A DNA stretch of 64,000 nucleotides from Psammoneis japonica (GCA_008632985.1 QPGO01000131.1:124001-188000), one strand, 5' to 3'. Counted from the first letter of the stretch, positions 1-62,299 are shown. Made by a program: numbers and translations. The notes: generated from the sequence alone by a model not told the origin.

Positions 1-284
1 ACATCACTCTCATTGCTCGCGGGCATGCGGTGCATCCACAGCCAATGCTGCTGCTGGTGGTGTGGTGGCAAGCAAAAGAAAAGTTGTGCTGTCAAAGCCA
101 AGTTGGCCACCCTGTCACCACACATCCAAGTCACCAAGTCATGGTGTGCAGGACCCTCTTGGGGGTGGTGCATGATGGGGGGCAAAACATCACAAGAAAA
201 ATGTCATCTTGTGCCAGGGGCATGCCAGCAGCTGGCACACATCAGGGCACCTTCCCGCACAATGGCCACTGTCTTGTCTTAAAT

Positions 285-866
285 GGTGACAAATGCTCTC
301 ACCAGTTGGCCCCTCCTGACATGGGCCAATGCTTCAAGTGATGAGAAACACCATGCTTTAAACACCATGAGTTCCTTGCTGCAACTCCTTGCTGCGCAGC
401 TTGAGAAAGTGACCTTTTTCTTTTTCTCACAGACAAGTGTTGCCTCATTTCAGAGAAACATTCAGCACCAACATGTGTGGGTTGAGAGAAGAGAGTGTTG
501 CAAGCCCATCCTCAATTCTCTTGCAATGCTCCTCACACCTCCAGCACTGTGATGAATCACCTCTCTTTCATCTGTGCCCAGAGAGGCAATGCTGAGAAAA
601 AGAAAAGTCTTGGCATTGAGCACACAGTGCACCCCCCAAACAGCAAAGTTGCCACTGGCATGTCTGCATGCACCCTGCCCAATCTTGAGAGATGAGCCAC
701 ATGAACAACAAGTGGGTGCAAAGAGTGGGACCTCAACAAAAAAGCACAAATGTGAGAGGTGCGCAAGAGTTTGTTGGGTCCAGCTGCCAACTTTGGGTGC
801 AAAACCAAAGCTGCCTCTGCCCCCTGCACACAAACTTCCAGCTCTTGACCAAGAGTTGGCAGAATG
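285..866. repeat. Old degenerate repeat, copy A left part (continues at 7760-8110 after the Copia insertion)
   Basis: Collinear similarity to 8980-9640, e.g. CCCTGCCCAATCTTGAGAGA vs CCCTGCCTGATCTTGAGAGA; GCACAAATGTGAGAG and CACAAACTTCCAGC shared. Confidence 0.8.
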
Positions 867-1053
867 TGTCAGCCCACCTGTTGTGCGATGGACAGACTGT
901 GTGCGGATGATGACCGGACCATTTGGACAGACGAGCAGATCTCTCTGAGATCTGCCTCTCACTTTCTCATCTGCTGGCACTCGTGTTGTCACAGTCCCAG
1001 TGCTCAGGGAGTCTTTCACACCTCTGTCATCATTGACCTTCGGCATTCTGTCA
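867..1053 (+). repeat. 5' LTR
   Basis: Direct repeat of 7568-7754 with 12 mismatches, all transitions; starts TGTCAG, ends CTGTCA; internal inverted repeat GCAGATCTC-TCT-GAGATCTGC. Confidence 0.97.
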
Positions 1054-1065
1054 GGTTGTGGCCTT
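1054..1065 (+). other. Putative primer-binding site (half-tRNAi-Met type, degraded)
   Basis: GGTTGTGGCC directly follows the LTR and resembles the copia-type GGTTATG(A/G)GCC PBS with TA->TG. Confidence 0.5.
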
Positions 1066-1233
1066 ACGCTGTGCCACAGAACTCTGCGCCAAGCTTTCCA
1101 TCTCGATTCATTTGTTTTGTGAGCTGACCGAGCAAGCCTCATCTTCTGTTCCAACAACAATTTTTTTCTCGCTTTCCCGGCATTTTTCACGATCGCAGAA
1201 ACATGCCAGATTTCTTCATGTGCATGACCAAAA

Positions 1234-4200
1234 ATGCCCTCATCAAGTGAAACCATGGCGTCTCCCGACCTTGCAAAGGCCGCTCCGACGTCCATTGCAG
1301 AGATCCACCATGAGTTTCAAGAACACACAATGACACCTCATTTCCATGCGACCTTGAACAAGATGCGCGCCGATTCAACATTTGATCTGGACCCGTTCTT
1401 TGATGATCCAGAACATGCTCAACCGAAGAAAGATTTTGTTGATGTGTTTCGAGATCACCTCGTCCACACGGCGTTCCCACCTTGCACGGTCCATCCTGTG
1501 GACATGCAGGCTGTCAAGATGATTGTGGATGAAGCTGCGCTCCGCATTGTTGACTCTGCCAGGCCTCGTGCGATCCGCATGACGCCCGCATCTCTCTCGT
1601 TGATCATCAAGACCAATCTCTGGGGAGCCACGATCAAATCATGTGCGTTGTCATCTCCACACACCACATTGATGATGACCCCGACATGACATGGAACTGT
1701 CAGGATTGGAAGGAGTTCTCCCTCATGCCCCACCCGCAGAACCCACAGCCTGCACCATCATCTACGACTGCTTCAGGACCTGCGACAGTTGGTGTGAATG
1801 ACTCAATCACCACCCTCAACAAGTTTGCGTCAAGCCACGCTCCGCCTTCCACTGCCTCTGGCAAGACCTCTGGAACTCCCGCAACTTCCACAGCATCCAA
1901 ATGTCTCTTCAATCCCAACACCCTGCCTCCCGATGTTTGCACACGCTGCGACCGCAAAGAAAGTGGTGCCGTCACCCTGAAGAGCTCTCTGGTCCCTTGT
2001 GACCATGGATTCCACCACTGTGTTGATGCGTCAGACCGCATCATTCTCAGTGATGGCACCCCCTTTGTCATGAGCTCGGCCCCCGACCAGAAGATGCCAT
2101 TCAGAGAACCTCCGATCTGCCATGATGATTCTCCCGCTGGGATGCGTGCATGGCACCAAAATTTTCAACGTCACTCCTTTGACTCGGGACACTGCGTGCA
2201 TCCTTTGTGGTGCTTCACCAAGGACCATGGTGGTGAGAAGGGTTTTGAGATTGGCAACGGCAAAGACGATGACTTGCCCCAACGAATGTATGTTCATTGT
2301 AAAGAAGCACAAAGTTCCCTTCACAAGATCCTTTCCAAGTCGGATGTGTTCCCCAAGAACAGCAAGCATCATCGGATTGTTGCATCATGCTGTGGCAATG
2401 GCTGCAAGGCTCTCAAGCAAATTGTCTGTGAGAACCACCTGGCTTTCGACCACGAAGCTGCTGGGTTGGTAGATTCCCACCCTGTTCAAGGAAATCTGTC
2501 CTTGATGCACTGTCACTCACATTTCAAGGATTTTCTGCAGCTGCATGCTCACATCTTCAATGCAGACTCTACGTTAGATGACTCTCGAGAGATGACTGTT
2601 TTTGTCAAGAACACCAAATGCTCTAAGTTCTCATCCCGTGCTGTTGGAGACAAAAGGAAGTCCCCTGCTGTGCTCAAGAAGCACACGGATGCACAGATTG
2701 TTGAGACCCTGTCTGACTTCCTTCATCAGTCGGACAGTCCATCTCTTGCAACTCACACGAGTCCTTGCAATCCATGCCACACATGGGATTGACACCCAGG
2801 GGACACACGTCGCACAACTGCTGATGTCAATTCCTTGACTGTCCTGGATGTCCCTCCCATTGCAGAGGATGCGGATGAGCCGCCAGAACCTGCCGATGTC
2901 GATCACTCCCCCGAGGACACCTTTGACTCCCTCTGTGCTGAATTGCATGACCTTGATGCACCTTCTGCAGATGAAGATCATCTTCTTCATCATGCTCACT
3001 CTGCTTCAGTGTACAAACTCAAGGTTGCTCCCACAGAGGCCTCCAAGAAACCATGCCTTGTTTGTTCTGAAGAACACTTGTTCCATGAGTGTCCTGTCTT
3101 GAATGACAACCCACACATCAAGGGCTTCCACACACGTTTTTGTCAATTCTTGAAGTGTGAAGTGGCTGTGCAAGCCTCTGAATTTCAAGGACCACAAGGT
3201 TTGTTGCCGCCTCATCAAGGACCATCTGATTCTCCGCCCAGCACTGGTGTCCAGTCTCCGGATTTTCAATCGGGCCATCGCAGCCAGTTTCGGATCTCCG
3301 ACGCAGCCCATTCTCTGCCCACCGAGACAAGACCAATGTCAGTGGGGGATGACCACGAAAGAGGGACCAAATGTCTGGTCATCTGCCGCTGCACTGCCTC
3401 TTTCTTTGATGACTGACACAGACTGCACAATGGTGTCAAGTTTGCCCCAAATGAGCGATGTGCTCAACTTAACACTGGCGCTGACATTGCTTGCACTGGA
3501 GATCGTGATCTCCTGCATCGATGCCAGGCATTTGCTCCTTCCGCCCCGTGCCCGCTTGCTGTTGATCCAGCTCTTGGACATGAAGCTGTCCCAGTCGGTT
3601 TTGGACATCTCTGCATCCCTGCGGAGAACTCCAATGGCTGTGTTGAGATTTGTGCACATCACCACCCACAACTCCAATCCACCTTGGTTGATGAGCGTTT
3701 GCTGCTCCGTCAGAATGGTGCACGTCACACGGATTGCAATGTTGATTGCATCCTCAAGTTCCATGATCTCGGCACTTGCAAGTTTGTTGCACGGCATTGT
3801 TTGCGCAAGAGTCAGGACATTGTTGTTCATGGGAAACTGATCAATGGCAAGTGTCACACTCACCCACTCATTCTCCCAGAATCACATGATGAGCTGGATG
3901 CATCAATCAAGTGCCTCAAGGCAAGTGACTCCTCCTTTGCAGATGAATGTGAAGCAGTCTCGGTCCACATGATTGAAACACATCGTGAATGCCAACATGA
4001 TGCTCTCTGCATGGAAAGAGAGTTGATCCCCCGAGCACATCAAGACACCCCGTTTGAGCAGTGCACCGAGAAGAACATTCCCGTCCAATCCCTCAAGGCT
4101 GATGCGGAGCACCTTTCATGGCATCAACATCTTGGACACCCCAGTGATCACTGTCTTTGCCATGCTCACGAACATGTTGATGGTGTCCCCAAGTTTGCAC

Positions 4201-7200
4201 ATGGTGCATCCCCCCTTGACACTTGCCCCACATGTGTCCGGGCTAAACAGACAAAGGAACCTGCTGGACCCAATGCCACTTTGACAGCCACCCAACCCCA
4301 CCAAGGTCTCACCGCAGACTTTTCTTTTTCTGGTCTCTGCTCCAAGAACACTGAGCGTGTCAAAGACTGTGTTGGGTTGAATGGCGAGACGTGCTGGATC
4401 ACCGTTTATGATCACGCAACGAAGCGCCTCCATGGTGTGACTCGTGTCTCGAAGGCTGCCCCCTTGAATTGGATTCGCCACTTTCTGGAGGAGCACTCGC
4501 CAAAATGTCCTGACAAACATGTTGTTCTGGATCAAGGAGGTGAACTGTACAATGATCTGGCGGTTTGGCGACTCTTCGAGGATGACTTTCATCATGCAAT
4601 TTGTCCCACTGGAAAAGACGCTTCGAGTCAGAGTGGCCCAGTTGAATGGAGTCATTTGACTGCTGCTGGTGCCATTCGGGCGATGCTTGTCGGTGCCAAT
4701 TTACCCGTCAAGTTCTGGCCCTGTGCTTTCCATCACTTCACTCGGATCAAGAATGCTGTGCCATCCCGGGGGCAGACTGCTGCTCCGATTGCACTTGCTG
4801 CTGGCCGGAAGGATGACTTTCGGAACTTCCACACATTTGGTTGTCGCGTTTGGGTGCTTGCTTCGAATCACCGTCCGGCAAAATTCGGGACCGTCTCACG
4901 CAAAGGGATTTTCTTGGGACACCTCCCGGACACCACCAAGAATGTTTTGTGGTGTGACACCAAGACATCGCGTGTTAAGCTGGCCAAGCACATCAGATGT
5001 GATGAGGGGATGAATGATTTACCCCACGAATCTGTTCCCCCGAATGTTGTTCATTTGCAACGCACTCAGGCTGGTGATGCCCTCCCTGCCGACACTGAAG
5101 AGACTGCCATGGATGAGCTCCACTTTCATGGCAACCCTTTCGCCAAGACCATCACACGCATCATGAAAGGACCTTTCACGGATTCCACTTTTGGCTTTTC
5201 ATTGGCCATGGATGATCCATGCCAACATGTTTTCGTCTCAGACATTCAACGTGGTTCCCCCGCTGCTCATCTCTTCTCGAACTTGAAGGTGACCCGCACA
5301 ACAAGATCAAAGGCGCGTGCACAGCATCGATTGATCATCAACCAGTTTTTACCCGTGACAATGCTGTCAAGCGTTTCCAGCAGTTGCGCGAGTCTGGCAA
5401 GACACATTTTGAAATGGAATTCATGCCAGAACGTCACTTGGACTCTCAGGCTCTCCAACGTGCTCTGATGGAACACAACATGTTCTCCCCTGCCCCGGAC
5501 CCTGACGATGAGCATGTCCCGGAGCTTGCACAAGCCGACACACGTGCCATTGCTGTGATGCGCCATCCTGATGCTGATTTTGAAGCCATTGACAATGATG
5601 ACGTCCTGCCACCTGTCCATGTTGACTGTGACAATGGTGTCGTCCACATCCATGGGATGTCCACCCGCACAATTGCCCCAGAGGAACAAGCCTTGGGTGC
5701 CTTCACTCGCCATCACCTCAAGAAATTGGATGCTTGGCCTGAATGGCATGCGGGCGAATTCAAACAACTTGACCAGTTTCATGAGTTGGGCATGTTTGGT
5801 GCTCCCATCAAACGTCCGAAGGACACAGTTGCACTGAGACCACACTGGCAATGTGACCTCAAACATGACGGTGCGCGATGCTCTCGTCAGTGTTGCGACG
5901 GATCCCCTCATGCTGCATCCATTCTCCACCGTCTTTGTTCAACATGCTCCTCCTGTGTTGAGCAACCCATCCAATGGATGTTCTTTGCCCTGGCAGCTAC
6001 GATGGGTTGTCTGGTGTGTGGCGGTGATGCCCGCGATGCCCATGCCCATTCTCCCCGCCCATCACATCCTGTCCACATTGCCGTTGACAATGCATGTGCG
6101 ACTTGGCACAAGTCTTGCTTTGGAAAGGAATTGGACAGGAGTGCGGCACTTCCTGTGCAACATGCTCTTCAAGGACACCCAGAAGCCGGCGTGCTCTGGG
6201 AGAATCACATCAATGGCATCTTGTCTGATGTGAATCTTTTGTTCCGGAACACTGCTCATGACAAATGCATCTGCTCTGCTGTGTTTGAAGGACACAAAAT
6301 TTTGCTCCTTCAACAGGTTGATGACTTTGCCATTGCTTGCCCTGAGGAGTCCATTGCCAAGACGATCTGTGACAGGATCGGCAAAGCCCTTCAATTGGAC
6401 TCGGAAACTGCTCCCCTTTCAAGCACCTTGGTCTCTTAGAGGAATTCAATGGTGTGGACATCCATCAGCATGATGATTCGATTGGTGTTGCCATCCACAA
6501 TTGCATTGATTGTGCTCACCTCTCACACGGTTGGTCCACACCAAGTGATGACAAACCACTTGATGACTTCAAGGCGACTCCGATTCCGGTGGATTCCATT
6601 CGAGATCTTTGCACTGACATTGGTCCTGCTGAAGGCACACCGGAACATGCGGAGCCACAACAAGCTGCTGGATTTGGATGCCGCACCCTCCTTGGTGAGC
6701 TGTTGCATGCATGTGTTGTCTGTCAACTCGACATTGGCTGTGCCATCACTGCCCTTTCCAAGTTCTCCACTTGCCCTGCGGCGGTGCATTGCAATGCACT
6801 CAAGGGTGCATGCAAGTGTCTCCGATGCACCAAACATTGGGAATTGAGCCACAAGAAATCTAAACGTGACCCGAGCCTCCCTGCCTGTCCGCATGAACGC
6901 TTGAGTCCCAATCCGTCTCTCCCATCATTCCCTGCTCCTGAGCATGACCATCAACTTGTTGCCTTCCTTGATGCTGTGCATTCTACGATGGGATGTGCTT
7001 GCATGTTGGCTGGTGCTGCTGTCTCCTTTCGTTGCAAGATGCAGTCGGTGACCGCTGCGAGTTCTACAGAAGTGGAATTCTGTGCTGCTGGTGCCACCGC
7101 CAAGCATGTTCTTTGCCTTTGCCATGTGCTGCATGACCTTGGTTGTTCCCAAATGAAGCCGACCCCATTGCATGTTGACAACGAATCGGCCATCAAGATC

Positions 7201-7398
7201 ATCAATCATTCGATTCCGACCGAGCATTCACGCCACATTGAGACTCAGTTTTTCGCGATTCAAGAATGGAAGGAAGTGGGCAAGATTGTCGCTGGACATG
7301 TCCCTGGCATTGTCAACCCCAGCAATGACCTTGCCAAGGCTCTTGGGTGGGTGCTCCATGCTCGCCACGCTCGACGCATGATGGGACACTGCCGTTGA
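1234..7398 (+). pseudogene. Copia gag-pol polyprotein, disrupted
   Basis: Zn knuckle CLVCSEEHLFHEC; protease-like LNTGA (~3468); GAG-pre-integrase WHQHLGH...CPTC; integrase DQGGE and FWP; RT QQVDDF; RNase H SSTEVE, DNESAI, RHIETQF, NPSNDLAK. In-frame TGA stops at 2790 and 3414 and frameshifts near 1670, 5295 and 6420. Confidence 0.95.
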
Positions 7399-7557
7399 TG
7401 TTTTTTCTGCGGTGGCCTCCCCTGCTGCGCATTGCCCCGTCATTTGACACGTGTTGGGCTCGGACACCTTTGGTGTCCTCTTTCTGGTTGCTCTGTTTGC
7501 ATCATCCCTGTTCTTGTTTTGATCTGCACTGCCTTCCATTTTTGAGATGTCACAGAT

Positions 7558-7567
7558 CAGGGGAGGG
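7558..7567 (+). other. Polypurine tract
   Basis: AGGGGAGGG abuts the start of the 3' LTR. Confidence 0.85.
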
Positions 7568-7754
7568 TGTCAGTCCACCTGTCGCATGATGGACAGACTG
7601 CACACGGATGATGACCGGACCATTTGGACAGACGAGCAGATCTCTCTGAGATCTGCCTCTCACTTTCTCATCTGCTGGTGCTCGTGTTGTCACAGCCCCA
7701 GTGCTCAGGGAGTCTTTCACACCTCTGTCATCATTGACCTTCGGCATTCTGTCA
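7568..7754 (+). repeat. 3' LTR
   Basis: Direct repeat of 867-1053, followed by the TSD GAATG. Confidence 0.97.
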
Positions 7755-8979
7755 GAATGTCATGCTTCATTGTTTGCAGAGACTTTGCTGTGGTGCAAGG
7801 GCAGAGCAACAATGATGGCTGCCAGACACCAGGACCAACAGCAAGACAACACATCATCTTTTGCTCTCAGCTTGCTCATGCAGAGTCAAACCTGAGTCTC
7901 ATCAACAACAACAATGTCAGCTTTTTTTCTTTCTCTGCCTGTTTGCAGCCAGGAGAGTTGTTGTCATCCCCAAGCCTGGGGCTTCACACCAGGGCTTGGT
8001 TTTTCCCTGCCAGAAGGTGTGCAGCCACCCTGGGCAAAAAATTTGCCAGAGGTGGGGGTGGTTTTTCTGACCAAGATGTGCAGAAGGAAGAGGGCTGGGG
8101 CACTCATGAGCATGGCCACTCTGGGCAGGGCTTTGTCTTCATCATCTGAAAAATGTTGTGTGGCTCTTGCTCAGATTGATCTGTGCTTGATGAAATTTGT
8201 GTGCTCTTGACAAGGGACAAGGGCTCATCAAATGTGGCTGAAGGGCCTTTCACAATTGGCGTGAATGGCAAAGCAGGTGAGGAAGTGATGCTTGACAAAA
8301 ATTTGTCTTGATGGGCACGTCATTTTGACAAGATGATCTTTGCACACATTGAGAGTGATTTCAACATGACTTGTTTTTGTTTGCAACCAATGTGGTCAGC
8401 GAAGCAGGAGGAAATGATGATGAACAAAACTTGTGACTTGCAAGTGTTCGTTCTTGACAACAGCGCAATTGCAACAAATTTCTGACATGGCTCATGTCTG
8501 ACAACAACAACAACAACAACACTCATTTGTCTCATCAACCTGCTTTTGCACTGGCTGCATGCTGTTTGCAATCTGATTTGCATGTGCCACAATTCATTTT
8601 TTCTTTTTGCCAAATCTTCTTTGCTCTCCATTTCCTGCTCTTTCCTTTTTGCTTTGTTGGCTCTTCTGCTGATGCTCACATCATCCTTTGCTGTCTGCAC
8701 ATGATGTTTTCCCATTGTGACAGTGCTGTTGCCTGCTGTCACCCTCCACAACCATTGTTCACAACCTTCTGTTTTGCATCATGGCCCCCCTGTTCTTCAT
8801 TTTGCTGGGTTGGCTCAACCAAGCTTTGCCAGCAAGAAAAGAAGAGAATTGTGACAGATCTGAGTTTTGCACATGCAGAAAATGTTCTTGCATTGTGTGC
8901 AGTGTGCACCAGCACATCTCTGGAACCACCACCCACACACATGCACACAACACAGCTGTGTCTGATGTTGTTTTGAGTT

Positions 8980-10030
8980 GTGACAGACACCTGCTGCCAG
9001 CTCTCCTGTCATTGGCCAATGTCCCAAGTGATGTCAAATGCCATGAGTTGCTGTCAGCTCCTTGCTGCTCAACTTGAGAGTGCCCATGCCTTTCCATTTC
9101 TCAGAAAAAATGCTGTGCTGTCTCATTTTTGTGCAACATCCAGCACTGGCATGTTTGGGTTGACAAGAAGCAAGTGCTGCAAGTCCACCCTCAAGACACT
9201 TGCAGCACTCTTTACATTTCCAATGTGGTGACAAACCAACTCTCATCTGGGCCCACAGAGGCAATGTGTTGAGAAACAGAGAAGTCTGGGCATTGGTGCA
9301 ATGAATGCAGCAAATTGATGCTGACACATCTGTGCACACCCTGCCTGATCTTGAGAGACAAGCTGCTGGAGTGATGAGTGGACACAAAGAGCAGCACTTC
9401 TGCAAAACAGCACAAATGTGAGAGACACATGAGAGCTTGCTGGGCCCAGCTGTTTGCTGATCTTTGCTGGCTGAGGTGGCTTGCTTGACATGTGTGTGTG
9501 TGTGGTGTGTGTGGAAAAGAAAATTGTTGCCAATCTTGGGTTTAAAACAAAGCAAAATTTTTGCCTTGAAAAGCATTTTTTCTGTTGCTGCAAAGCTTTT
9601 GCCTGTGCACAAACTTCCAGCCCTTCAGCAACAGCTGACGGTGTCATGGTCAGTTGTTTGCAGAGACTTTGTGCTGTGTGAGGACAGAGCAACACTGACA
9701 GCTGTCATCAGAGCCACCCCCAGGACACAACAAGTCAGCTTTTGCTTCTTTTGGCTTTCTTGTGCAGAGTCAAACCCCCGCCTTTTTTTTTGCTTTCTTG
9801 TGCAGAGTCAAACCCCCACTTTGTTCACAATGGCATCAGCTTTTTTTTCTTTCTCTGCCCATCTGCAACCAGGAGATGTTGTCACCCCAAATCTTTTGAA
9901 ACACCAGAGGGCTTGGTTTTTTCCCACTGCCACCAGCACAAGGCAGGCACTGCCACCCCTGGCAAAGATTTCCAGGTGGGCAGCTCTTCTGATGCCAAGA
10001 CTTGCAGGGGACAGAGTCGGTGAACTCATG
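8980..10030. repeat. Old degenerate repeat, copy B (uninterrupted paralogue of 285-866 + 7760-8110)
   Basis: Shares TTGTTTGCAGAGACTTTG, TGCAGAGTCAAACC, TCAGCTTTTTTTCTTTCTCTGCC and AGGGCTTGGTTTTT blocks in the same order. Confidence 0.8.
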
Positions 10031-11194
10031 AGCACCTGGTTGCTCTGTGAAGGGAAGTTTTTTCACCATCTTCCTTTGAACAGCATGAACTGGATCATTT
10101 GCTCATGTTTTTTGTGCTCCAGCTGAAGACAGCACTCTGCCTCCTTGCCTTTGATGTTCTTGGGAGTCTCATTCTTGAAGAACCTTCTTTCATGTGGTTG
10201 TTCTTGAGATTTTTCTCAACTTTCTTGTGAAACAGATGCTGCTCCTGCAAAGACATGTGCCAAGAAAAAGTCAACAAGGAACTTGTCCACAACTGCCTGG
10301 CCTCATTCTGTGGCACACTCCACAGTTTTTCAACTCTGGGCATGCAAGGAGTCATCAGAGGCAGCAACACAGTGGCCTCCACTTTCCTTTGTAAAATTTT
10401 GAGTGTGCATCGTTAAAATTGTCAACAAGCAGAACTTAAAAAATGCCAGCAAAAGTGCTTGACAAAATGAAGCTGTTTTTCGCATTTCATCTGATGTCTC
10501 ATTAACTTTTCTTGCACAAGCTTCAATCAAATGCATGCAATGTTCAGTTCAACTGGGATCAAAATCTGTTTTTTGCCATGCATGGCTTGGTTTCCTTTTG
10601 ATTGTGATCAATTTGAACTTGGTTTTAACTTTGTCCTCCTCACTCACGTGTGTGTGTCTTTGCACGTGTGCAGTCTGCAGCACTTCACATGCACGCATGT
10701 GACCCACCTTCATTTTTCTTCACTTTTGCGCAGCCTGTTGGTCCATGGCATTTTCATCACATGTTTTGCATGCACAATTTTCTGCACATTTCACAACAAT
10801 GCACGCTCTCCCCAAAGTTTGAAAAATGAGAGTGTGTGCTGTTGTGATTCACGTGGATCCTGCGTGTGGTCGCAAATCTGCAAATCAACAACCGGCCATG
10901 GCGGTGAAAGACTTCACCCCATTGGCCGATGACAGCAGCTCAACGCATGGTGACACCTGCCATCCTTCTGGTTGGTCAAGATGGGGTTTTATTTGGGCAC
11001 AGCTTGAATTTTGTGATCGCGAGTGTGCTGTCACGAATCTGCCACATCCAGAATGCTGAGCTGCTGGCGTGTTGTTGTGTGTTGTGTGCACGCACGTCAC
11101 AAACTTGCTTTTCTGCAGCATTGTCATGATCACGCATGTCAGAGTTTTGCATCCAGAATCATCACAAGTCACCATAAATTGCACTGTTCAAACA

Positions 11195-11465
11195 AGGCAT
11201 GTGCAAAAAGAGGTTCATTGGTTTTTGACACATTCGCCAACAACACATCCGTCTTCTCCAATTTCTGCATCCAGACCCAGAAAGACTGCAGGCGGTGCTT
11301 GTTCCTGCAGCTCTCAGAACCACACATGTGAAAAGTTCTTTGCCATGTGTGACAATCTTCAAAAAAGGCATGCACAAAAAGAGCTTCATTTGTTTTTGAT
11401 GTGTTCACTTGCGTTGCATCCATCTTCTCCAATTTCTGCATCCAGATCCAGAAAGACTGCAGAGG
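11195..11465. repeat. Two diverged direct repeats ~170 bp apart
   Basis: AGGCATG..CAAAAAGAG.TTCATT and TCTTCTCCAATTTCTGCATCCAGA.CCAGAAAGACTGCAG each occur twice. Confidence 0.8.
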
Positions 11466-11616
11466 CAGAGAGTGGGGAGGCAACCCATTGGAGGTTGCCT
11501 CTGAGTTGTTGGGCTCATTTTTAAAGGCTTCCCAAGTCTCTCTGCTGTTTGTGGTCAAGAGCAGCAGGGGGGGGGTCGACTGCAACAACCGCAGCAGCTG
11601 CCAATTCCATGTCGAT

Positions 11617-12295
11617 GGGTCGGGAACTGGTGGCAGAAGCTCCCGAATCGGTGGTGGCGGACGCACCTGCAAGCCTGCATTGAGGTTTCAATTGGTTGCT
11701 GTTGTTGTCCCACACACTCTCACAAAGTGTTTTACATTTCTTTGCAATGAATGAGGTGGATCAGAGCAATGTTGCTTCACATGGTCCTGAATCGGCTTCG
11801 CGGGGTCGGGAACCGGCGGCAGAAGCGACCGAATCGGCCGCGGCGGATGCACCAGTGAGCCCATGTTGCGGTTTCAATTGGTTGCTGTTGTTGTCCCACA
11901 CACTCTCACAAAGCATTTTGCACTTCTTTGCAATGAACAAGGTGGATCAGGGCAGCGTTGCTTCACCTGGTCTGGAGTCAGCGGCGCTGGGTGCACAGGC
12001 AAGTCCACACATTGACATCTCCATTGGCTGTGGTTGGCTCATCTTTGTCATGCTCTCACAATGTTTTCTGCACCGTTCGGCAATGAATGAGGTGGCTGCC
12101 AGCACTGGCAGTGGCTCTTCAAGAAAGAGAGCTGGGCAGCTGCTGCAAACTTGCCTGCTCCAGAATCGGCGGCGCCGGATGCACCGGCAAGTTTGTGTTG
12201 CTGTTCCTGTTGGTGGTGTCAGTTCATCCACATTGCACTCTCACAACGCATTCTGCACTTTTTTGGCAATGAACAAGGTGGCTGCAAGCAGCGGC
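11617..12295 (+). repeat. Four degenerate tandem units (~145-190 bp) with fossil exon/intron structure
   Basis: Repeated GCAC..G(C/T)(A/G)AG ... CTCTCACAA ... GCAATGAA(T/C)(G/A)AGGTGG. Confidence 0.75.
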
Positions 12296-13219
12296 ACTTA
12301 AAGAAAGTGAGCTGCAACTGCTGCTGCAGACTCCAGGGTGTTGTCTCCGTCGGCGTCATTCAACTTAAATGTGGACAACAAAGTGGAATGTTCATGGTGC
12401 AATGCAAATGATTTCAATTTACAGGTTTTGCAGGGATGGAGGGTGGGCACTCTCATGGAGAAAACGTGCCCCTGTTTCATGGTGAAACATTTTTTCTCGT
12501 GGGGAGGGGGGGTCTGATCCCACAGCACAAAACATTGATCTGTCACAGTTGACACATCATTGCCAGCTGCACAACCAATGAGGTTTGAAACCACAAAAAA
12601 TTTGTCCATGAAAGGAACAAAAATCACAATGAAAAGATGTGTGATGATCACTGTGTTGCGTGCTCTGATGGTCTTGCAAAGCTCTTGTTGCTTCTTTTGC
12701 TCTTTGACATGTGCCACAAGGTCTTGACAGCTCACATTGTCTGTGTCAGCTTCACAACAAAGAGGCAGGACCTCATTGACTGTGTTGTGCTTGTGAGTTT
12801 TCCAGAAAAAAAGAAGCCACCCTTTTTGGGATCTGCTGGGCTGTGCCCCTGGCATTTGCAGAGCGGCTTCTTTGGCCATTCCATGGCCCATGCAATGACA
12901 GACAATTGCTCTCATCACCACAAAGTGTGTCATTTGCGGGGCTCTGCTGTCATGTGTTTGGTTGTCAAAGAACAAAGCACAACAGTGAATGAGTCGTTGT
13001 CAAGGAGCCCACACTCTAGAGAGCAGAGTCATGATTGAAGCATTTTGTGAGCATGCCAAATTGGTCAACCAAAAAGCAAGTCGTGCATCTGCCAAAAATT
13101 TCAATGATGCATGGAACCAATCAGAGATGCATCGGCAAGAAAATTTTCAAGCAACTGCTGCAGCCGTGTGCAGCAAGTAAAAAATGACAACATGTGCTTT
13201 TTAAGACACCTGTTTTTTC

Positions 13220-14050
13220 TTGAACTTCCAAATTCCAAAGTGAAAGGATCCCATGACGGCACCCCAACCAACCTCACAACTGCAAGCAGACCCCAAGGAC
13301 AGTTTGAGAATTGCATCTGAGTGCTGCAAGGTTAATCCAACGGCATTGTGGGGTGCCATGTGACCTTGTCCCCAACAGCAGTGGACTTGCTAAACTTCCA
13401 AACTCCCAGAAAGTGCAGGGGTCCCATGGCAGCACCAACCAACCCAACAACTGCTGGCAAAGAGCAGCGGTGGTGTCTGCCAAACCCCAGGTGGCACTTT
13501 AAGAACCATGGCTGGGTGTTGCAAGGTTGTTGTGGTGTTGTGGCCCCATGTCACCATGTGCCCAACTGCAACAGACTTGAACTTCAAAAACTCCACAGCC
13601 CCACTGCAGTGCCAACCAACCTGACAACTGCAAGTTGAGGGCATTGGCAGTGTCTGGTGCACACCAGGTGTGACTTCAAGAATTGTGGCTGGGCATTGCA
13701 AGGTTGATGTTGTGGCATTGTGGCCCCATGTTGCAACCTTGCGCCCAACCACAGCAGACCAGAACTTCCAAATTCCACATTTTGAGGATCCCATCATGGC
13801 ACTGACCAACCTGACAACTGACAGCAGAGGGCAAGGTGATTTTTGGTGAACCCCAGATGAGACTCAGCTCAAGAGCCATGGTTGGGCATTGAAGTGTTGA
13901 TCTTGTTGTGGTGCTGTGGGCCACACATGACCTTGTCACCAACAGCAGCCAACTTGGCCAAAGGTCAAGGATCCCATCATGGCACTCTGGTGGACACCCC
14001 CCAGAGAAAGGCTTCAAGAGCTGTTGTTGAGCATTGCAAGGTTGATCTTG
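13220..14050. repeat. Degenerate tandem array, ~170-190 bp unit, about 4.5 copies
   Basis: Recurring AACTTC(C/A)AA, CCAACC..ACAACTG, GCAAGGTT and CCAAC motifs with units starting near 13222, 13392, 13579, 13762, 13950. Confidence 0.75.
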
Positions 14051-17000
14051 TGACAAGGATTGAATGCGATCCTGTTTTTCAAACAGATCTGGTGGCAACA
14101 AACTCTCACATCTCAGGCCAAACATGTCTCAGGCAAAAGGCAACCTTTCAATCAACTTGGGACATCAGTGGCACCTGCACAAGGAGCAGATTGTTTGGTT
14201 TGAAAAGCAAAGTGCTCTTGCAAGTGTTCTTTCCTGAAAAGCTTTCCTGGAAAGCATTCTTTGCAACCACTTTTGGCGAGGGATCCTTTGGTCAATGATG
14301 ATGAAACTCAATGACAAAGGTCAACATTGACCAGAGTTGCCCACAGGTCAAATGCATTGTGTCATCTGTTTGGCCCAAAGAATGTTCTGACAAAAAAAGC
14401 TTCGTTGAGTGCCAGCAGTGTGGCACCAGTCACTCTGCTTGTCCAATCTCTTGACGTCATTTTGGTGCTCAGTTCATCCATTGCCAAAGCACCTTTTAAA
14501 AGGATGCTGTGATGACTGTGGACCTTTGTGGTGCCTCTGCTGCTGGCTTGCACTTTTTGTTTCTGGAAGAGTGCCTGCACAGAGCATGTTCTGACACTGA
14601 TGCTCATTTGCATCAGCAACAACATGAAGTGTGTGGCAAACCTTGGGCACGTTGTTTTGGACAAAAAATGTGCCATGTTGGTGGGAAAACACTGAAGAAT
14701 GAGGCAGTGCTGCATGGAGAATTGGGCAACATGAAATGTGCAACATCCAACAAAAATGCTGGAGAAAATTGAGAGTTGGCAGGATCATGACACAACATCA
14801 GAGTGCAAATTTGTTGAAGAAAAAAAAAACTGTGACAAAATCTCACTGCAGAGGATGTGGCAACATTGAGTGATTTCCTTGTCTGGATTTGTTGTTTCTT
14901 GGCTGTGGAAACAAGACCCAAACTGCTGTCATTTCCTGGATGTGTTGCTGTGGTCACTCTTCACATGCTGAGATTGGAAGTCATTTGCAGCGCCACTGCC
15001 AAGAAAAGGAGCACGAGCTTCACAGCTCCACACCAAACCATTGCAAAGCCCTCTGCTTGGCAAACCCATGTTGTGTGCAAAGAGGCTCAAGCTGTCAAGC
15101 CTGCTGGCTTGCCGCACATGCTGGCTGGCTGGCTTCAAACTGGCTTGTCTTGTGGTGCTTGTCTTCAAAAATGGCCTGGCACAAACACCCCTCAGCTTTG
15201 TTTTACATGTCATCAATGTGGAAGCTTCAGTTGTGGCCTTTTGCTCTGGGATGTGAGCAAAATTTGCACTCTCTTCTTGTGCAGAGTTGTTGTTGGTGAC
15301 ACAAGGTCAAAAAGCTTTTGGAGAGTTGTTTCTTGGGTCTGCCTTCCTCAAATGTGCAGAAAGCAGCTCTGATCTGCTTGGTCTTGAAACATGATGAGGA
15401 AAGGCAATCTTCACACCAAGATCCATGCATGGTTGTGCCAAGAAAAGGAATTGTTTGTCTCATTTCTGTGAGTGTGTGCAGACATGTTGAGCACACACGC
15501 AGGGCTCACCGCCCTCCAACAGAGAGCATGAGATTGTGCACTTGGATGGACCTGGAGCACCATTTTTGTCTGATGACAATGGCCTCCTCTTCTGCAATGT
15601 CTTCAAAAAAGCAACACATTTTCTGGTGCAGACTTTGCAGACCTCAAATTCCAAAATGTGCAGAGGGCTGTGGCTTCCAACTTTTTCCTGTCAAGGTGCA
15701 AACCTGCGCAACTTCCAACCACCAGATTCACAGTTGCTGAGAGCAAGCTTTCTGCAAATTTGCTGCAGTTGTGCCACTCACTGTCAGATTCACAGTGCTG
15801 TCTCTCACGGCAACCCCAGTTTTGTTGCCTCTGTTTTTCTTGCCAAACAAACCCCATTTGTGATGTTCTTTGGTTTTGCTTTGCCCAGGCACATGAGTCC
15901 TGGAAGTGGTGCAAGCTTGCAGAACTTGCCAGATGCTGGAGAGAGCAAAAAGCTGCTGAGCAGATCATCATCCTTTTGAGGCACAAATGGCAGGCCAGGA
16001 GATGAGTCAAGTTTGGACTCTGGTGGGCTTTGTGAGCCACCACACCAAGTGCAAAAACACCAGCACCTCTGTTTGCTCCTCAGACAAAGGGCCAGCTGCC
16101 AGATGTGATGGGAGCGCCAATCCTTTGCTCAAATTTGCATTTTTCCCTTGTGCAGCATTGACAGGGCTCTGCCTTTAGCACAAAAGGCCAGCCCATGGTG
16201 TGTTTCTCATTGTTTGTGATGTTTTGCTCACAAAGTTCTCTTGCTTCCTGTGCTGTGCTGTTGCAAAACCTGAGCTGGATGGCCTCCAAAACACCAAAAA
16301 TTGGTCCTCAAGACCCCATCTCTCTTCTCATTCTTGGCTTTGTCCCAATGTTCAATTTGCTGCCAATTGCACGGCATCTCCCTTCTCACCCAACAACACC
16401 TCAAGGTCACACGAGTGCAGAAAAATCCACCCCAGAAAATTCCACTCTCCTCCTCTCATCTGTCATGTGCTGAGCTCCACCTCCTTTGCTTCCATCTGCA
16501 CACCATTTCCAATCTTCCAACTTGTCTTGTTTTGTTTTGTGTTGCCTGCCTTCCCAACTGCCACTCATTTGGTCTGCTTGTGAGCTTGCAGCACACCGAG
16601 CCATGCATCTGCTGATGACATGCACAAGCAGGCAAGCAAGCCCTTCTTGCTTCTTGCACCACCACATCCTGGGCTTGAACTTGTGCTGCTCTGAGATGAT
16701 TGCTGGCATCTTACACATGATCCTCTGAATGTGCAGAAGCTGGAACAGACAGAGCCAACAATGCCAAGCACACAATGTCATTTGAGGCACAAAAGGTGGT
16801 TGTCAGCTGGGGCAAAGAGGCATTTGGTGCAAACAAACAAAATTCTTGCAAACTTCAGGAGAAGCAACAACCAATTTGCAAGTCAATTTTTGCCATTTCT
16901 GGGCATGGCTTGGTTGAGGAGAAATGACACCAAGAGGCAGTGAGAGTGGTGTGGTGGTGTTGTGAACAAAAAAGTGCGTCTTTCTTTGTTTGTTTCTGCG

Positions 17001-18651
17001 CTTGCATGTGTGTTCACTTTTTCCTGGAGCACCAATGCCGGGTGAGCTGTGCAGCACAAACAATCTGGGATGCAGGCAATGGGTGGTTGAATGGAAGACC
17101 TGCTGACCAAATGAACAAATTCTCAACAAGATCAAAATTGTTTGTAAAATGGGGCATTGCAAATTTGATGCATTGCACGGCCATCATCTGAAACATTGGC
17201 CACCACAAAGAAAGCACCAGATGTGTGATTTTAAAGAGGCAATCACAACAAAAATGTTCACAAATCAAATGACAGAACAAAGCACAGTTGACATTTGCAA
17301 AAATTGTGCATTGGCGGAAACTGCAATCACAAATGTGAAAATTGCTTGTGGCCATTGTTCGCCATTTTTCTCATCAAGAATCAAGCATGGAAACACACCA
17401 CACAGACAACATCTTTGCTTTGCAGGGGGGCTCACAGCAAGCTGACACACAAAATCTTGCTGTTTTTTCATGCTGCTGACAATGGCGCTGTTGGCGCTGC
17501 GATGCAGCCTTGCCTTTTTTCCCAGGAGCTGTGCATTCCATGTCTTCACACAGTTGTTCTTGAGGCTTTGTCTCAACTTTTTTGTGAAACAAATGTGGCT
17601 CCTGCCAAGGAGCATTGGAGATTGTCAAAAAGAAGCAAAAAGAAGCTCTCAGGGCTCTTTTTGAGGCTCTTTCAGTGGCGGCAGCCAGAGCACAGCCCCA
17701 AGAACCTGTGCACAAGTCCTGCGAAGCTCTTGTTGCTTTTTTTGCTCTCTGACACATGCAACTCACACCATCTGCATTGGTTTCACAGCAACAAAGCCTG
17801 AGCAAAGTTAAAAGGGGGGCACAAAAGCTCTTTCTCTGCTTGGCCTTTTTCAGCTCAGGCAGCACAAAGCTCAGTTTCTAGCTTCTTGTGCGAGAGAGTC
17901 TTGCAAAATGCTTTTTTGTTGCCTTTTTTGCTCTCTGACATGTGCAACTCACATTGTCCATTTTGGCATTGCAGCAAAAAAAAAAAAACCAACTGCAGAA
18001 TTTGCCAGCTTTTTAGAAAGAAAAGAGAAAAGCTGTCTTGCTGTCTCGTCTCTGCAGCTGCAGGCACGCCACCAGCTGAAGGCCAAAGCCCAGCTTCTTT
18101 GGCCGTGTGTTCCACCACTGCACCATGTGACAAGAGGTGATTGTTCTCTTCACCAAGGAGAACAGAGCACGACAGTCGAGTCCCCACAAGTCCGTTAAAG
18201 CATTTGTGATCGCGTGAAATTGGTCACCAGACTGTGTCATCCAAAAATTTCTACAGCAAGTGGGGATGCCAGCCCGCCCCACCGGCACACGGTAAAACCA
18301 AGCAGAGAGCAAAAAAATTTCGGGCTATGTACTGTATTAGTGGCCTAATGCAAGTACTAACTTATAAATATAAATGCATACTTCTTCATTCTTTTATTCA
18401 TTACTGACATCAGTATATTTGGTTAAAACAATTTTTGATACCCCTGTTAACGTCGAAATGCGTTGAATCATCGTTCCCGCAAAACTAAATTTTCAATTTG
18501 AATTCACACGATCAAAAACAATACCAGGTTCTCCGTAGGATTCTACAGGCATTGGCTGGTTGCGCGGGAAGACGGCGGCTTGAACGGATCACAACAGCAA
18601 CTCACAATTGGAAGTCAATCACTCTCTTCGCTCATTTTCGGCAGAGCAGAC

Positions 18652-21600
18652 ATGGCGACTGCAGACGACATCTCGGTTGACCCATCGCTCTTTATAGAGG
18701 ATGAGTCTGTATCAACGATCGCCGATAGCGTGAGAGCACCGTCCGTGAAAAGTGTACCTCCTATGGCTGCCGAACCACCCCAGGACGAAGAGCCTACGGA
18801 GCCGGAAAAGCCTGAAGAACCGCAAGAGCAAGCGGACGAGAAGGCTGCGGTAGAAGAGGAAGAGATGAAGGAACAAGTTACTGCTGAATCTGCAGCAGAA
18901 GAATGTGAGCAGGAGGAACATGCGGAAGAGAAATCTGCTTCGGTGGATGAAGAAGATCAAAAGGAGCCAGCAGAAGAAAATTCTGGAGCTGCAGTAGAAG
19001 AAGAGCCAAAGCACCAAGCAGAAGAGGCTGATGAAGAAGATCAGACAGAAGCAAAGTCTGCAGTAGTGGAAGAAGTAGAAGACCAGGAAGAGCCGCCAGC
19101 AGAAAAGTCTGTAGTAGTGGAAGAGGTGGAAGAACAGGAAGCGCCACCAGCAGAAAAGTCTGTAGTCGTGGACGAAATAGAAGAACAGGAAGATCCACCC
19201 GCAGACAAGTCTATAGTAGCGGAAGAAGTAGAAGAACAGGAAGAGCCACCAGCAGAAAAGTCTATAGTAGCGGAAGAAGTAGAAGAACAGGAAGAGCCAC
19301 CAGCAGAAAAGTCTATAGTAGCGGAAGAAGAAGGCCAGACAAATGAAAAAGGAAAGGAACAAGCAGAAGAGGAAACCTCGGTTGTGAACGTTGATACAAT
19401 TGACGATGAAGAGGAAGAAATTGACGTGGACGCACTCGATGCTGAATCCCAAGCAACTGCGTCAGTTATTACATCAGTCCAAGACGATGCTTCAGTCCGT
19501 CAAACTCTCACGCAAGCATCGTTTCATTCCATCTCATCCTCTATTCACGAATCTGTAAGGAACGAATCTTTTCACTCGGCTCCAAGCGCTGCATTCTACG
19601 ACTATGCCACCGATGACAAGACCCACAAGTCTTATCTTGACGAACCGGATAGCTCGGTGAATCCCTACGACACTGAAGATGATCCATCTTATTTGGCTGG
19701 GGCGAGGAACCGCGATGTTTCTGCTGAGGAAGAGTCGGCTTATGCCATTGACGGAGAGTTTGATAAGAGCGTGATTTCGGCTGAGGAGGGCGTTCGACCC
19801 AAGTCACCCGCACCCACCTCGTCTGATACTTCACAGGACTCTCCTCTGGGCCTAGGTGGAGCTGCAATTATTCCCTTGGACCCTGTCAAAAAACGCAAGC
19901 GCCGCTTAATTTTTGTCGGAGTCTTTTTGCTGGTGATTGTTGCCGTTGTCATTCCTATTGCAGTCATTTCGTTTGGAGGCAACGGCGGAGACTCATATGA
20001 TCCCAATCGGGCTCCACCTCCGACCGATCGAGAAAAGGAACTCAACGTCCTTTTCGCCGGCGTGTCGGATTCACACCTCCTGGAGAGATTGAACTCGCCG
20101 CAGAACTTGGCGAGGCAGTGGATTGCCAACATTGATCCATTGCAACTGTCGACTATTACTGATTCTCCCGATCGAATCATTCAGCGTTATATCTTGGCAG
20201 TCTTTTGGTATGCTACCAGTGGGGACTCGGCTTGGCTTAACAATGATTGGCTACAGGGCACCGATGAGTGTGCTGGATCCTTTTGGTTTGGTCTCAACTG
20301 TAACGAGATTGGTCAAGTGCGTGCCATAGTTTTTGGTAAGTTATTTGCAACGTTATATGCTTCTTCTGTTTATTGAACATTGCCACTTTCTAACCGCTCC
20401 TTGATGTTTCACTTGGCATTTCAGACAAAAACTCTCTCGAAGGAACTATTCCACGTGAAATTGGATATCTACCCGAACTGGAGAACATCATTCTCAAGAA
20501 CCACCCACGCCTCAAGGGACGCATTCCTGGAACCATTGGAAACCTATCAAAGTTGCGCCAATTGGGTCTCTACAACAACAAGCTCGAAGGTTTGATTCCC
20601 AAGCAGATCTACTCATTAACAGAACTGACCTACATCAATCTGTCGGGTAACATGCTGCAGGGAGGATTGGACATTGCCGTCGAGAATCTGGTCAAGCTGG
20701 AAAAGCTTATATTAGCGAACAACAAGTTGAGCGGTGCCTTTCCAGCTCGCTATCTCGGAAGGACAGCTCTTCGATTTCTTGATCTGAGCAACAACCATTT
20801 CGCAGGCCCCATCCCGGGCGCCATTGGAAGCGTTGACACACTTGAGTACATTAACTTGTCCTCTAACAATCTGGATGGGGAAATCCCCTTTCTGGGACAA
20901 CTTTCTAACCTCAGTAAGTTCCTCTGTAGCGAAATCAATGTAATACCGATGCATTGTGCATCGAGTAGCTCACTTTTACTGTTTTGTACTGATCTCAGAG
21001 TCGCTTATTGTGGGGGGAAACAACTTTTCCGGTTTTCTACCCCCAAGCATGTCGAAACTGAGGAATCTGACGTACGCGTCTTTCCAGGACAACGAATTCA
21101 CGGGAGAGCTTCCATCGGAATATAATACGCTGTCGAATCTGGGTATGTAGCGGATATTATGTAGCGGATATGTCTATTGGTGAAACATGTTATCGTCTTC
21201 GTTTTGTTTTACTCACCTTTCTCTCTCATCTTTTGTCATTTCAGAAACGCTCAATGTTGGCAACAACGATCTGTCCGGGCCAGTTCCAGATTACTCGGGG
21301 ATGACTTCGCTGGTCAATTTCCATGTCCACCAGAACCAGCTCGACGGACAGTTTCCTGAATTTCTCATTTTCCTTAAGAATCTAGGTGCGTTTTGTCGTT
21401 TCTCGGACTGTCTGAAGTATATGTTGTCTGTTTATTTCTCACACCTTTGCCCGTTGTCCTTCCTTATCCTTCAGAGGTCATTTTCCTCAGTTCGAACAAA
21501 TTTGTCGGCCCCATTCCGAACAGTCTTACGTTCTTGTCCGACTCGTTGAAGGGTCTGTATTTGTCGGATAATCAGTTTGACGGTCTTCTCTCATTGAGCC

Positions 21601-21995
21601 TCTGCGGACTGTCACAGTTGGAAGCATTGTTCCTCGATGATAATATGCTTGAAGGACAGATTCCAGCTTGCTTTGGCGACTTGTCAAACTTGCGCCAACT
21701 CTATCTGTTTGGAAACAAGCTTTCCGGAGACGTGCCTGCTGAACTAGGCAATTTGTCGTTGCTCAGTAAGTCATTATATTGTTATCGGTGCTTCCAGCGT
21801 CATTTCATTTTTCTATCTAACTCGGTTGTGTCGCCCCTTGCAGCCGGTCTCGGTTTGGAAAATAATGACTTGGTTGGCGACGAGGTTCCTGTGTGCGGCC
21901 TCACGCCTTCGCCCCTCGATGATTTGTGGGCGGACTGCGGCGAGATTGGATGCAGTTGCTGCACGGTGTGCTGTCCAGGACCATCATGTATGTAG
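18652..21995 (+). CDS. Leucine-rich repeat membrane protein (acidic N-terminus, one TM helix, LRRs, Cys-rich end); 6 exons
   Basis: KKRKRR then hydrophobic helix; QRYILAVFWYAT..W pre-LRR motif; LxLxxNxLxGxIP repeats; GT-AG introns 20336-20424, 20914-20998, 21143-21244, 21386-21474, 21766-21843. Confidence 0.92.
19050..19330 (+). repeat. Coding 51-bp tandem repeat (EEVEEQEEPPAEKSIVA, ~5 copies)
   Basis: Directly visible in DNA and translation. Confidence 0.95.
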
Positions 21996-23095: not shown

Positions 23096-23105
23096 ATGAC
23101 GTCAT
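23096..23105. promoter_or_regulatory. CRE/bZIP-type palindrome ATGACGTCAT upstream of SHMT
   Basis: Perfect 10-bp palindrome ~135 bp upstream of the ATG; function not shown. Confidence 0.35.
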
Positions 23106-23239
23106 ACCGCTGACGCATGCGTATCTTTTGGATCAATCGTTCGAATGAATCAACTGTATCGCGCCGTCTTGTTTCTTCTATCTCTTCTCGTTTCAAGAGG
23201 CACAATCTCTCGAACGTTCTCGACGTGACAGAATCAATC

Positions 23240-62211: not shown

Positions 62212-62299
62212 TGCCGTTTGCCTGCTAGTTCCGGGTATTGTCGATTTCAGCATCCGTTGACAAACAAGTAACTACTCATCAGTAAGGTACAAAGGCATC

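Follow-up and report, generated by a model that had tools for sequence, protein, structure and literature searches.

How can a chromosome lose almost every TA dinucleotide in some tracts while the neighboring genes keep theirs? The question is raised by a 64,000-nucleotide stretch of DNA from Psammoneis japonica (QPGO01000131.1, positions 124001-188000; hereafter the window, numbered from its first letter), in which four islands are nearly free of TA. The largest island fills the first 18 kb and includes a decayed Ty1/Copia-type long terminal repeat (LTR) retrotransposon. An initial interpretation made without database searches, referred to here as the sequence-only reading, attributed this state to a repeat-targeted process mutating adenine in the TpA context, an inverse of fungal repeat-induced point mutation (RIP). 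The analysis described below points to targeted editing of TpA in double-stranded mobile DNA, with a trigger that may not be repetition as such.

The islands lie at 1-17950, 26239-26975, approximately 32445-34598, and 62289-64000, the last being truncated by the end of the window. Together they comprise 22,463 bp, which were compared with the remaining 41,537 bp. Dinucleotide counts gave a total of 62 TA in the pooled islands (0.27% of dinucleotides, observed/expected ratio 0.04) versus 4.08% in the rest of the window (observed/expected ratio 0.60); given the flank rate, the binomial probability of 62 or fewer is about 1e-309. Every 2-kb bin across 1-18000 has a TA observed/expected ratio between 0.01 and 0.07, and the island borders are abrupt, falling within tens of bases and up to approximately 300 bp. 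In the main island (1-17950), the observed/expected ratios are 0.05 for TA, 0.35 for CG, 1.72 for CA, and 1.78 for TG. The third island (32445-34598) contains 0.19% TA, 0.70% CG, 12.08% TG, and 11.84% CA, and the fourth (62289-64000) 0.12% TA and 1.34% CG. Other dinucleotides made of A and T are not depleted, with island observed/expected ratios of 1.23 for AA (1.10 in the rest of the window), 0.85 for AT, and 1.17 for TT. Host DNA beside the islands has been spared: the segment 18326-26238, which includes the SHMT gene (23889-25061), has ordinary TA and CpG contents, with 4.32% TA and 5.22% CG across 18300-26000. Counting thus bore out the composition described in the sequence-only reading, namely a near-absence of TA over 18 kb with abundant AT, AA, and TT and an excess of TG and CA, its recurrence in three further islands, and an ordinary TA content in the neighboring genes.

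Absent from that reading is a loss of CpG in the same islands, where CG amounts to 1.96% of dinucleotides (observed/expected ratio 0.32) compared to 5.55% elsewhere (0.97). TG and CA reach 11.22% and 10.77% in the islands versus 7.16% and 7.08% in the rest of the window. The sum of TA, CG, TG, and CA is nearly the same in the two compartments (24.22% and 23.87%), which indicates that the whole island anomaly is accounted for by conversion of TA to TG or CA together with conversion of CG to TG or CA. The GC content is slightly higher in the islands than in the rest (0.495 versus 0.478). Loss of CpG is uneven across the main island, which combines an old decayed repeat, the nested Copia element, a high-copy repeat (approximately 10400-12700), and further decayed DNA: CG is retained at 3.82% in the young Copia element, at 2.78% in the repeat at 10401-12700, and at 0.3-0.75% in the older parts.

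The Copia element (867-7754, plus strand) is the feature from which most can be learned. It is flanked by a 5' LTR (867-1053) and a 3' LTR (7568-7754) of 187 bp each, identical at 175 of 187 positions, and by a perfect 5-bp target-site duplication, GAATG, at 862-866 and 7755-7759. Its open reading frame (ORF) at 3417-5468 matches the Pfam families gag_pre-integrs and SH3_retrovirus. In tblastn alignments, three homologous proteins that bear an RVT_2 domain (P0134, P0141, and P0142) cover 3963-7389 in three frames, which indicates two frameshifts, at approximately 5300-5357 and 6415. These homologues align over 5300-7389 downstream of the integrase part, so that the order of gag, integrase, and reverse transcriptase is retained. 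With paired LTRs, a 5-bp target-site duplication, and integrase encoded before reverse transcriptase, the element is a full-length Ty1/Copia-type retrotransposon. It no longer has intact coding capacity, given the two frameshifts and a tyrosine content of 0.3%, and profile searches of its frames at an E value of 0.05 left no match to rve or RVT_2.

The direction of change can be read from conserved protein columns. The 683-residue Copia frame contains 0.3% Tyr, 4.8% Cys, and 7.5% His, compared to a Tyr content of 1.9-5.0% in 73 of 76 homologues of the integrase region. Eleven alignment columns have Tyr in at least 70% of 25 homologues; in these, the window reads His at six (CAY codons), Cys at four (TGY codons), and Tyr at one. 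In the same alignment, the window retains conserved Trp (6 of 6 columns), Pro (26 of 28), and Gly (26 of 28). Relative to the closest intact homologue, P0134, a single Tyr of 43 is retained, with 20 replaced by Cys and 15 by His, whereas 15 of 16 Trp and 80% of Gly residues are unchanged. Arg is retained at 42% of positions and replaced mainly by His and Cys; the Arg codons of the element have become His, Cys, Gln, or Trp codons, and the Arg-to-His/Cys pattern is the one expected from CpG decay. The Tyr columns, together with the comparison of tandem copies described below, show that TA was ancestral and was then converted, and that the elements were not natively TA-free. They also establish the claim that TA was lost through A-to-G or T-to-C changes, the opposite of RIP.

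Tyr-free relatives occur among database proteins as well, amounting to 3 of 76 in one search and 3 of 41 in another. These entries (P0146, P0187, P0188, P0210, P0211, and P0221) are rich in Cys and His and probably represent hypermutated Copia copies in translation. Frames without stops become long in TA-free DNA because TGA is the sole stop codon left.

These data bear on a deflationary alternative, in which no mutation occurred and the TA-free state is either native, maintained by selection against TA or UpA, or an artefact of base calling or assembly caused by modified bases. Room for an artefact is left by the sequencing platforms of the assembly and of the public run that was compared with it (X1), neither of which is on record, and by the possibility that X1 is not independent. 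A native state is at odds with the ordinary Tyr content of the homologues, with conserved Tyr columns that read His or Cys, and with the frameshifts in the element. As for an artefact, 96% of sampled 31-letter words of 14001-23000 are present in X1, and separately assembled X1 contigs with a word depth of approximately 60-75 span TA-free stretches at 7726-8449, 8438-10406, 14035-15480, 15991-17294, and 17282-19236 with zero to two differing letters each, that is, per 0.7-2 kb. The contigs agree with the TA-free state, in a check that is not fully independent. Independent support comes from contigs of several unrelated metagenome projects, which show the same state. In addition, a strand-symmetric miscall would be expected to yield mixtures of TA and CG instead of clean TG or CA. 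We consider this alternative scarcely credible.

The two LTRs of the Copia element, which are identical at the time when the DNA of such an element is made, provide information on when and on what substrate the process acted. They differ at 12 of 187 positions, and every difference is a transition. Eight of the 12 form four adjacent pairs in which one LTR has TG and the other CA, and two others are CpG sites lost in one LTR. No TA survives in either LTR, whereas five CpG sites are kept in both and two in one only, so that 2 of 14 LTR CpG copies have changed. With so few CpG changes, the discordant TG/CA pairs are very unlikely to be derived from CpG; they are ancestral TA sites that were struck independently, and in opposite senses, in each LTR. 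The pairs show that the process acted on double-stranded element DNA once both LTRs existed, in the chromosome or, at the earliest, in the finished linear cDNA. Loss of TA was thus separate in each LTR, complete, and much faster than decay of CpG. As a rough estimate, the TpA rate would have been at least a few hundred times background, with all LTR TA lost and approximately 1.3% of other sites differing.

The same comparison decides against editing at the RNA level, in which an ADAR-like or fungal-type enzyme would convert A to I in transcripts and reverse transcription would fix the changes. Such a mechanism could draw on the 5' U preference of known A-to-I editors and on the fact that the best-characterized island is a retrotransposon. 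It predicts LTRs that match at edited sites, however, and the four discordant pairs exclude it as their source. Moreover, the two strands were struck about equally (TG 2530, CA 2429 in the islands), the tandem duplication at 26030-27398, which is not a retroelement, was mutated as well, and a 3' G is the least favored neighbor (mutated fraction 0.16), the opposite of the 3' G preference of ADAR. RNA editing is therefore highly improbable.

Intermediate stages of the process were found among related elements in metagenomes. A scan with an alignment of the Copia integrase region yielded 80 loci, of which 38 form one family and were aligned to derive a majority consensus. Most of the 80 loci have TA observed/expected ratios of 0.55-0.8, approximately ten fall at 0.16-0.4, and locus L056 reaches 0.01 (4 TA in 5.5 kb). 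Within the family, consensus TA sites are retained at 93% in L042 and L043, 50% in L031, 28% in L065, 22% in L038, and 0 of 203 in L056, where 53% of these sites read TG and 36% read CA (89% together). Across the 38 copies, neither CpG retention (41-80%) nor divergence at other sites (3.5-12.8%) follows the loss of TA, and C-to-T change at CpG is 13.2% in L056 versus 12.1% in 11 TA-retaining copies. Loss of CpG behaves as a process of its own, slower than the loss of TA.

Context-resolved spectra against the consensus, which the sequence-only reading had named as a check, revealed the TpA-specific A-to-G excess. Per adenine, A-to-G change in L056 reaches 47% at TpA (of a possible 50%), compared to 8.1% at ApA, 11.9% at CpA, and 5.4% at GpA; the corresponding values in the 11 TA-retaining copies are 4.7%, 5.0%, 4.2%, and 2.7%. 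The raised value at CpA is probably an artefact of the consensus at decayed CpG sites. These spectra bear on error-prone synthesis by a WA mutator of the DNA polymerase eta type during repair of silenced DNA, a candidate put forward in the sequence-only reading. The hotspot of this polymerase includes TA. It is disfavored by the sparing of ApA, which that reading had itself observed: A-to-G change at ApA rises from 5.0% in controls to 8.1% in L056 as TpA goes from 4.7% to 47%, AA is not depleted in the islands, and neither clusters nor patches of changes are seen. We regard polymerase error as a very unlikely source.

The distribution of changes within copies is that of scattered, independent hits. 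In seven of seven copies, the order of TG and CA outcomes resembles that in shuffled sequences, mutated and unmutated sites are unclustered by a runs test, and a search of these seven copies for strand-coordinated clusters, which would hint at a single-stranded intermediate, found none. The partly mutated copies L038 and L067 lack different TA sites, which indicates that they were hit independently. In L038 (991-4749), the TA-poor tract stops at about 4250, inside sequence for which homology to other family members persists. Coding-strand TG is in excess in some copies, which may hint at an influence of the direction of transcription or replication.

Partly mutated copies also reveal a preference among sites. 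The mutated fraction by 3' neighbor is 0.39 for T, 0.33 for C, 0.22 for A, and 0.16 for G, and the contexts mutated first are ATAT (0.79), ATAC (0.59), and GTAC (0.53). Among the 62 residual TA of the window's islands, 19 lie in TTAA, for which the ratio of islands to rest is 0.62 compared to 0-0.12 for nine other contexts (Fisher p 1e-12). TTAA is the sole TA context that reads T-T-A-A on both strands.

At two island edges, the TA footprint extends past the loss of CpG. The zone 18015-18325 is TA-poor and CpG-normal, with 4 TA versus 12.7 expected (P 0.005), and the zone from 62289 to approximately 62480 is likewise TA-poor yet CpG-normal. In these zones, the TA process may have spread slightly into flanking DNA, or the ends of the elements may be unmethylated. 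Inspection by eye of the edges of the third and fourth islands gave no evident terminal inverted repeats or target duplications.

What the process recognizes is addressed by the second island, which lies in a tandem duplication at 26030-27398 consisting of units of approximately 660-710 bp (U1, 26030-26686; U2, 26687-27398). The mutated tract, from 26239 to about 26975, covers exactly one contiguous period, which leaves half of each copy unmutated: the initial 209 bp of U1 and the final 400 bp or so of U2 are untouched. Both copies switch at the same unit position, between 26238/26958 and 26259/26994, and both switch points adjoin an (AGAGC)n run. Past the switch point, U1 carries TG at 12, CA at 8, and another dinucleotide at 4 of the 24 TA sites of U2 that were aligned; ahead of it, U2 carries TA at 2 and TG/CA at 7 of the nine TA sites of U1.

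This arrangement is difficult to reconcile with homology sensing of the RIP type, in which duplicated sequence is detected and TpA is mutated in all copies. Most island DNA is or was repetitive, as old repeat pairs and the depth of X1 words attest: depth is approximately 60-125 in some parts of the main island and peaks at 5669 at 10673-11339, compared to about 70 in single-copy DNA, which identifies a high-copy repeat at that position. Copies also differ mainly by transitions, which account for 282 of 329 places where X1 carries variants from other copies; several of these variants are adjacent CA/TG exchanges (3242/3, 4558/9, 4920/1, and 6017/8). The spared halves of the tandem duplication, however, are as duplicated as the mutated ones, which argues against recognition of repeats. 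Metagenome copies that retain from 93% down to 0% of their TA, though perhaps residing in different genomes, are likewise unexpected. In the chlorarachniophyte Bigelowiella natans, in which a similar hypermutation has been described, the main target is reported as single-copy (Mettrop et al., bioRxiv 10.64898/2026.01.13.699255). Targeting of repeats, as proposed in the sequence-only reading, is accordingly not established, and homology sensing appears distinctly unlikely. The one-period tract would instead fit a process that marks an "extra" copy, as judged from this one case; that copy could have been a loop formed opposite an unduplicated homologue in a diploid nucleus, or an extrachromosomal copy re-integrated by a single crossover.

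Based on these data, a simple model would suggest that the islands consist of defunct mobile elements or other "extra" DNA of a pennate diatom's nuclear genome, which a locally targeted, TpA-specific transition process has driven to saturation. In each TA step, a single A:T pair would be exchanged for G:C, yielding TG or CA, after which the site would cease to be a target. The process would act on completed double-stranded element DNA, copy by copy, with the strand chosen at random from site to site, and would affect the whole element and halt at its edge or within approximately 300 bp of it. CpG, presumably methylated, would decay independently and more slowly in a second process, which would remove CG and also feed TG and CA. 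The chemistry could be enzymatic deamination of adenine after T by a candidate ADAT2/TadA-type deaminase. The tRNA substrate of these enzymes is A34, which follows the invariant U33, and a TpA preference of an enzyme of this type is therefore plausible. Irreversible inactivation of invading DNA would be the function, and the process may be triggered by DNA that is newly inserted or lacks a partner, or by the silent chromatin of such DNA, as opposed to repetition as such. We consider it highly probable that mobile or extra DNA was edited here in double-stranded form, in a targeted, distributive, and TpA-specific manner of the type seen in B. natans, alongside independent CpG decay, with the enzyme and the trigger being the conjectural parts.

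Several points weigh against this model or narrow it. Adenine deamination is indistinguishable by sequence from modification of thymine on the other strand, and the diatom case is known through its footprint, from which ongoing activity could at most be surmised. The LTR test could also fit action on unintegrated linear cDNA in place of the chromosome. Strand use is uneven in some metagenome copies (TG:CA 107:73 in L056, p 0.014; 51:20 in L038, p 0.0003), whereas the window islands overall are balanced (p 0.16). The context ranking from the metagenome correlates with the residual TA of the window in the expected direction and without significance, both with TTAA included (Spearman -0.40, p 0.26) and without it (Spearman -0.56, p 0.12). 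Sites derived from CpG bias the majority consensus, and the copies are interrelated and hence not independent. The taxon of the metagenome contigs is deduced from the named relatives of the Copia frame, which belong to the diatoms Cylindrotheca, Nitzschia, and Pseudo-nitzschia, with one labeled as a bacterial metagenome-assembled genome (MAG). Finally, X1 may derive from the same sample as the assembly.

The first of these points defines an alternative chemistry, which leaves the targeting and the biology of the model unchanged and replaces its enzyme. A TET/JBP-type or other enzyme could modify the T of TpA in silenced DNA, and a derivative, for instance of the formyl-uracil type, would pair with G and lead to T-to-C change. 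Oxidised thymine does mispair, and some protists modify T preferentially at TpA. Conversion to CA and conversion to TG would then be one event seen from two strands, and all of the sequence results fit equally well. The B. natans authors prefer adenine deamination, citing the presence of an ADAT2 homologue only (bioRxiv 10.64898/2026.01.13.699255). We judge thymine chemistry to be unlikely and retain TpA-specific deamination of adenine as the preferred reading.

More generally, a tentative and speculative extension of the editing model is that diatoms, and with B. natans perhaps a broad range of the SAR supergroup (Stramenopila, Alveolata, and Rhizaria), own a dedicated double-stranded DNA base-editing defense that senses newly inserted or unpartnered rather than repeated DNA and turns every TpA into TpG or CpA on either strand. 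Its agent would be a natural, context-specific editor of adenine (or thymine) in duplex DNA, and the one-period tract would mark the "extra" copy. Were such a dedicated defense real, TpA conversion would leave no Tyr codon and a single one of the three stop codons. A host function of this kind would constitute a second irreversible "mutate the invader" defense in eukaryotes, with a chemistry that is the reverse of those of RIP and APOBEC, and its occurrence in diatoms as well as in B. natans would make it less a peculiarity of one species and more a system that spans lineages. The trigger and the enzyme become testable in diatoms, which dominate ecologically, are diploid and sexual, and in some cases can be transformed. 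To our knowledge, context-specific editing of adenine or thymine in duplex DNA is so far known mainly from engineered editors, and a natural TpA-specific duplex-DNA editor, if real, would be of interest to the base-editing field. TA-free tracts also have practical consequences: with TGA as the only stop, they inflate ORFs and yield Tyr-free database "proteins," and they distort the dating of transposons and the composition-based detection of foreign DNA.

The remaining content of the islands is sparse. Of 104 ORFs of at least 90 residues, 79 island ORFs were scanned against Pfam at an E value of 0.05, and the 25 skipped were mostly short and overlapping antisense frames. Outside the Copia ORF, no family reached its curated cut-off among the 79, and no domain was recognizable in the scanned ORFs of the remaining decayed DNA of the main island. 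Weak sub-threshold matches to PDZ, Telomere_reg-2, and Cnd1_N were taken as chance. The third island is without a recognizable domain, and the fourth holds a 425-residue stop-free frame with no Pfam match. Self-comparison revealed an older repeat, free of TA and CpG, that the Copia insertion has split into a left part (313-866) and a right part (7758-8147); a second copy lies at 9003-10071 with 68-72% identity. Short internal tandem duplications occur within islands at 32981-33235 (95% identity), 11617-11992 (83%), and 13223-13986 (66%).

Flanking frames encode SHMT, V-ATPase H, a histidine phosphatase, Serinc, a CER1-like hydroxylase, an ABC protein, and RTP1/TANGO6-like proteins. Diatom proteins matched by the SHMT frame at 87-91% identity come from Nitzschia inconspicua, Fragilariopsis cylindrus, a Bacillariaceae MAG, Cylindrotheca, Seminavis, and Pseudo-nitzschia. 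These matches, none of them listed as exact, would place the window in a pennate diatom that is probably close to Bacillariaceae. On the host side of the first border, a 624-residue frame (18502-20376) has an ordinary TA content, no Pfam match, and in-frame tandem repeats of approximately 100 bp at 19017-19333 (81-87% identity).

Among known systems, decay of methylated CpG shares with the islands the conversion of CG to TG or CA, which has occurred in the same DNA, methylation itself being presumed. It cannot remove TA, it is slower (2 of 14 LTR CpG copies versus all LTR TA), and it is uncoupled from TA loss in the metagenome family. Editing of retroelements and viruses by AID/APOBEC enzymes in animals is similar in that a deaminase-type host activity serves innate defense against retroelements and leaves context-specific transitions; these enzymes act on C in single-stranded DNA and leave strand-coordinated runs of G-to-A changes, in contrast to the present changes at A:T pairs in TpA, on both strands and without runs. 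RIP in ascomycete fungi resembles the present process in using irreversible, saturating transitions to kill mobile DNA and in leaving a sharp-edged dinucleotide footprint. It differs in consisting of C-to-T changes, mostly at CpA, that create TpA and lower GC content, whereas TpA is destroyed and GC raised here, and in that RIP mutates a duplication in both copies, in contrast to the tandem copies here, each of which was half spared.

The closest match is found in B. natans. The sequence-only reading knew of no described system with this signature; full-text searches, with subscription journals outside their coverage, found it only in a preprint on that organism and found no report from a diatom. 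In mutation-accumulation lines of B. natans, viral DNA that has integrated into the genome is hypermutated from TpA to TpG or CpA (Mettrop et al., bioRxiv 10.64898/2026.01.13.699255). Integrated regions of nucleocytoplasmic large DNA viruses (NCLDV) and virophages received 231 of 302 nuclear mutations, 230 of which were A-to-G or T-to-C changes (NCLDV 210 of 211, virophage 20 of 20), all at TpA. The rate was approximately 6e-7 per site per generation, about 1000 times background, and hypermutation was seen in some lines only. The genome also contains 124 clusters that are TpA-poor, rich in CpA and TpG, and enriched for reverse transcriptase and DDE domains, and the authors propose an ADAT2-like deaminase, Bn78255, from homology and a predicted fold only (bioRxiv 10.64898/2026.01.13.699255).

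The two cases share near-exclusive A-to-G and T-to-C change at TpA, mirrored here by the 12 LTR differences, all of them transitions; confinement to foreign-derived regions with normal neighbors, where TpA is depleted and CpA and TpG are gained over the long term; and a raised GC content, against the usual mutational bias. They differ in host, a chlorarachniophyte (Rhizaria) versus a diatom (Stramenopila); in target, viral insertions with a regional TpA Rho of 0.45 versus transposons and a duplicated segment at 0.04; and in evidence, a rate measured in living lines versus a footprint. By this analogy, the diatom process would be of the same kind, operating in a different lineage of the supergroup, on transposons, and run to saturation. 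The independent action on the two LTRs, the lack of strand-coordinated clusters, the independence from CpG decay, the survival of TTAA, and the one-period tract go beyond what the available text of the preprint describes.

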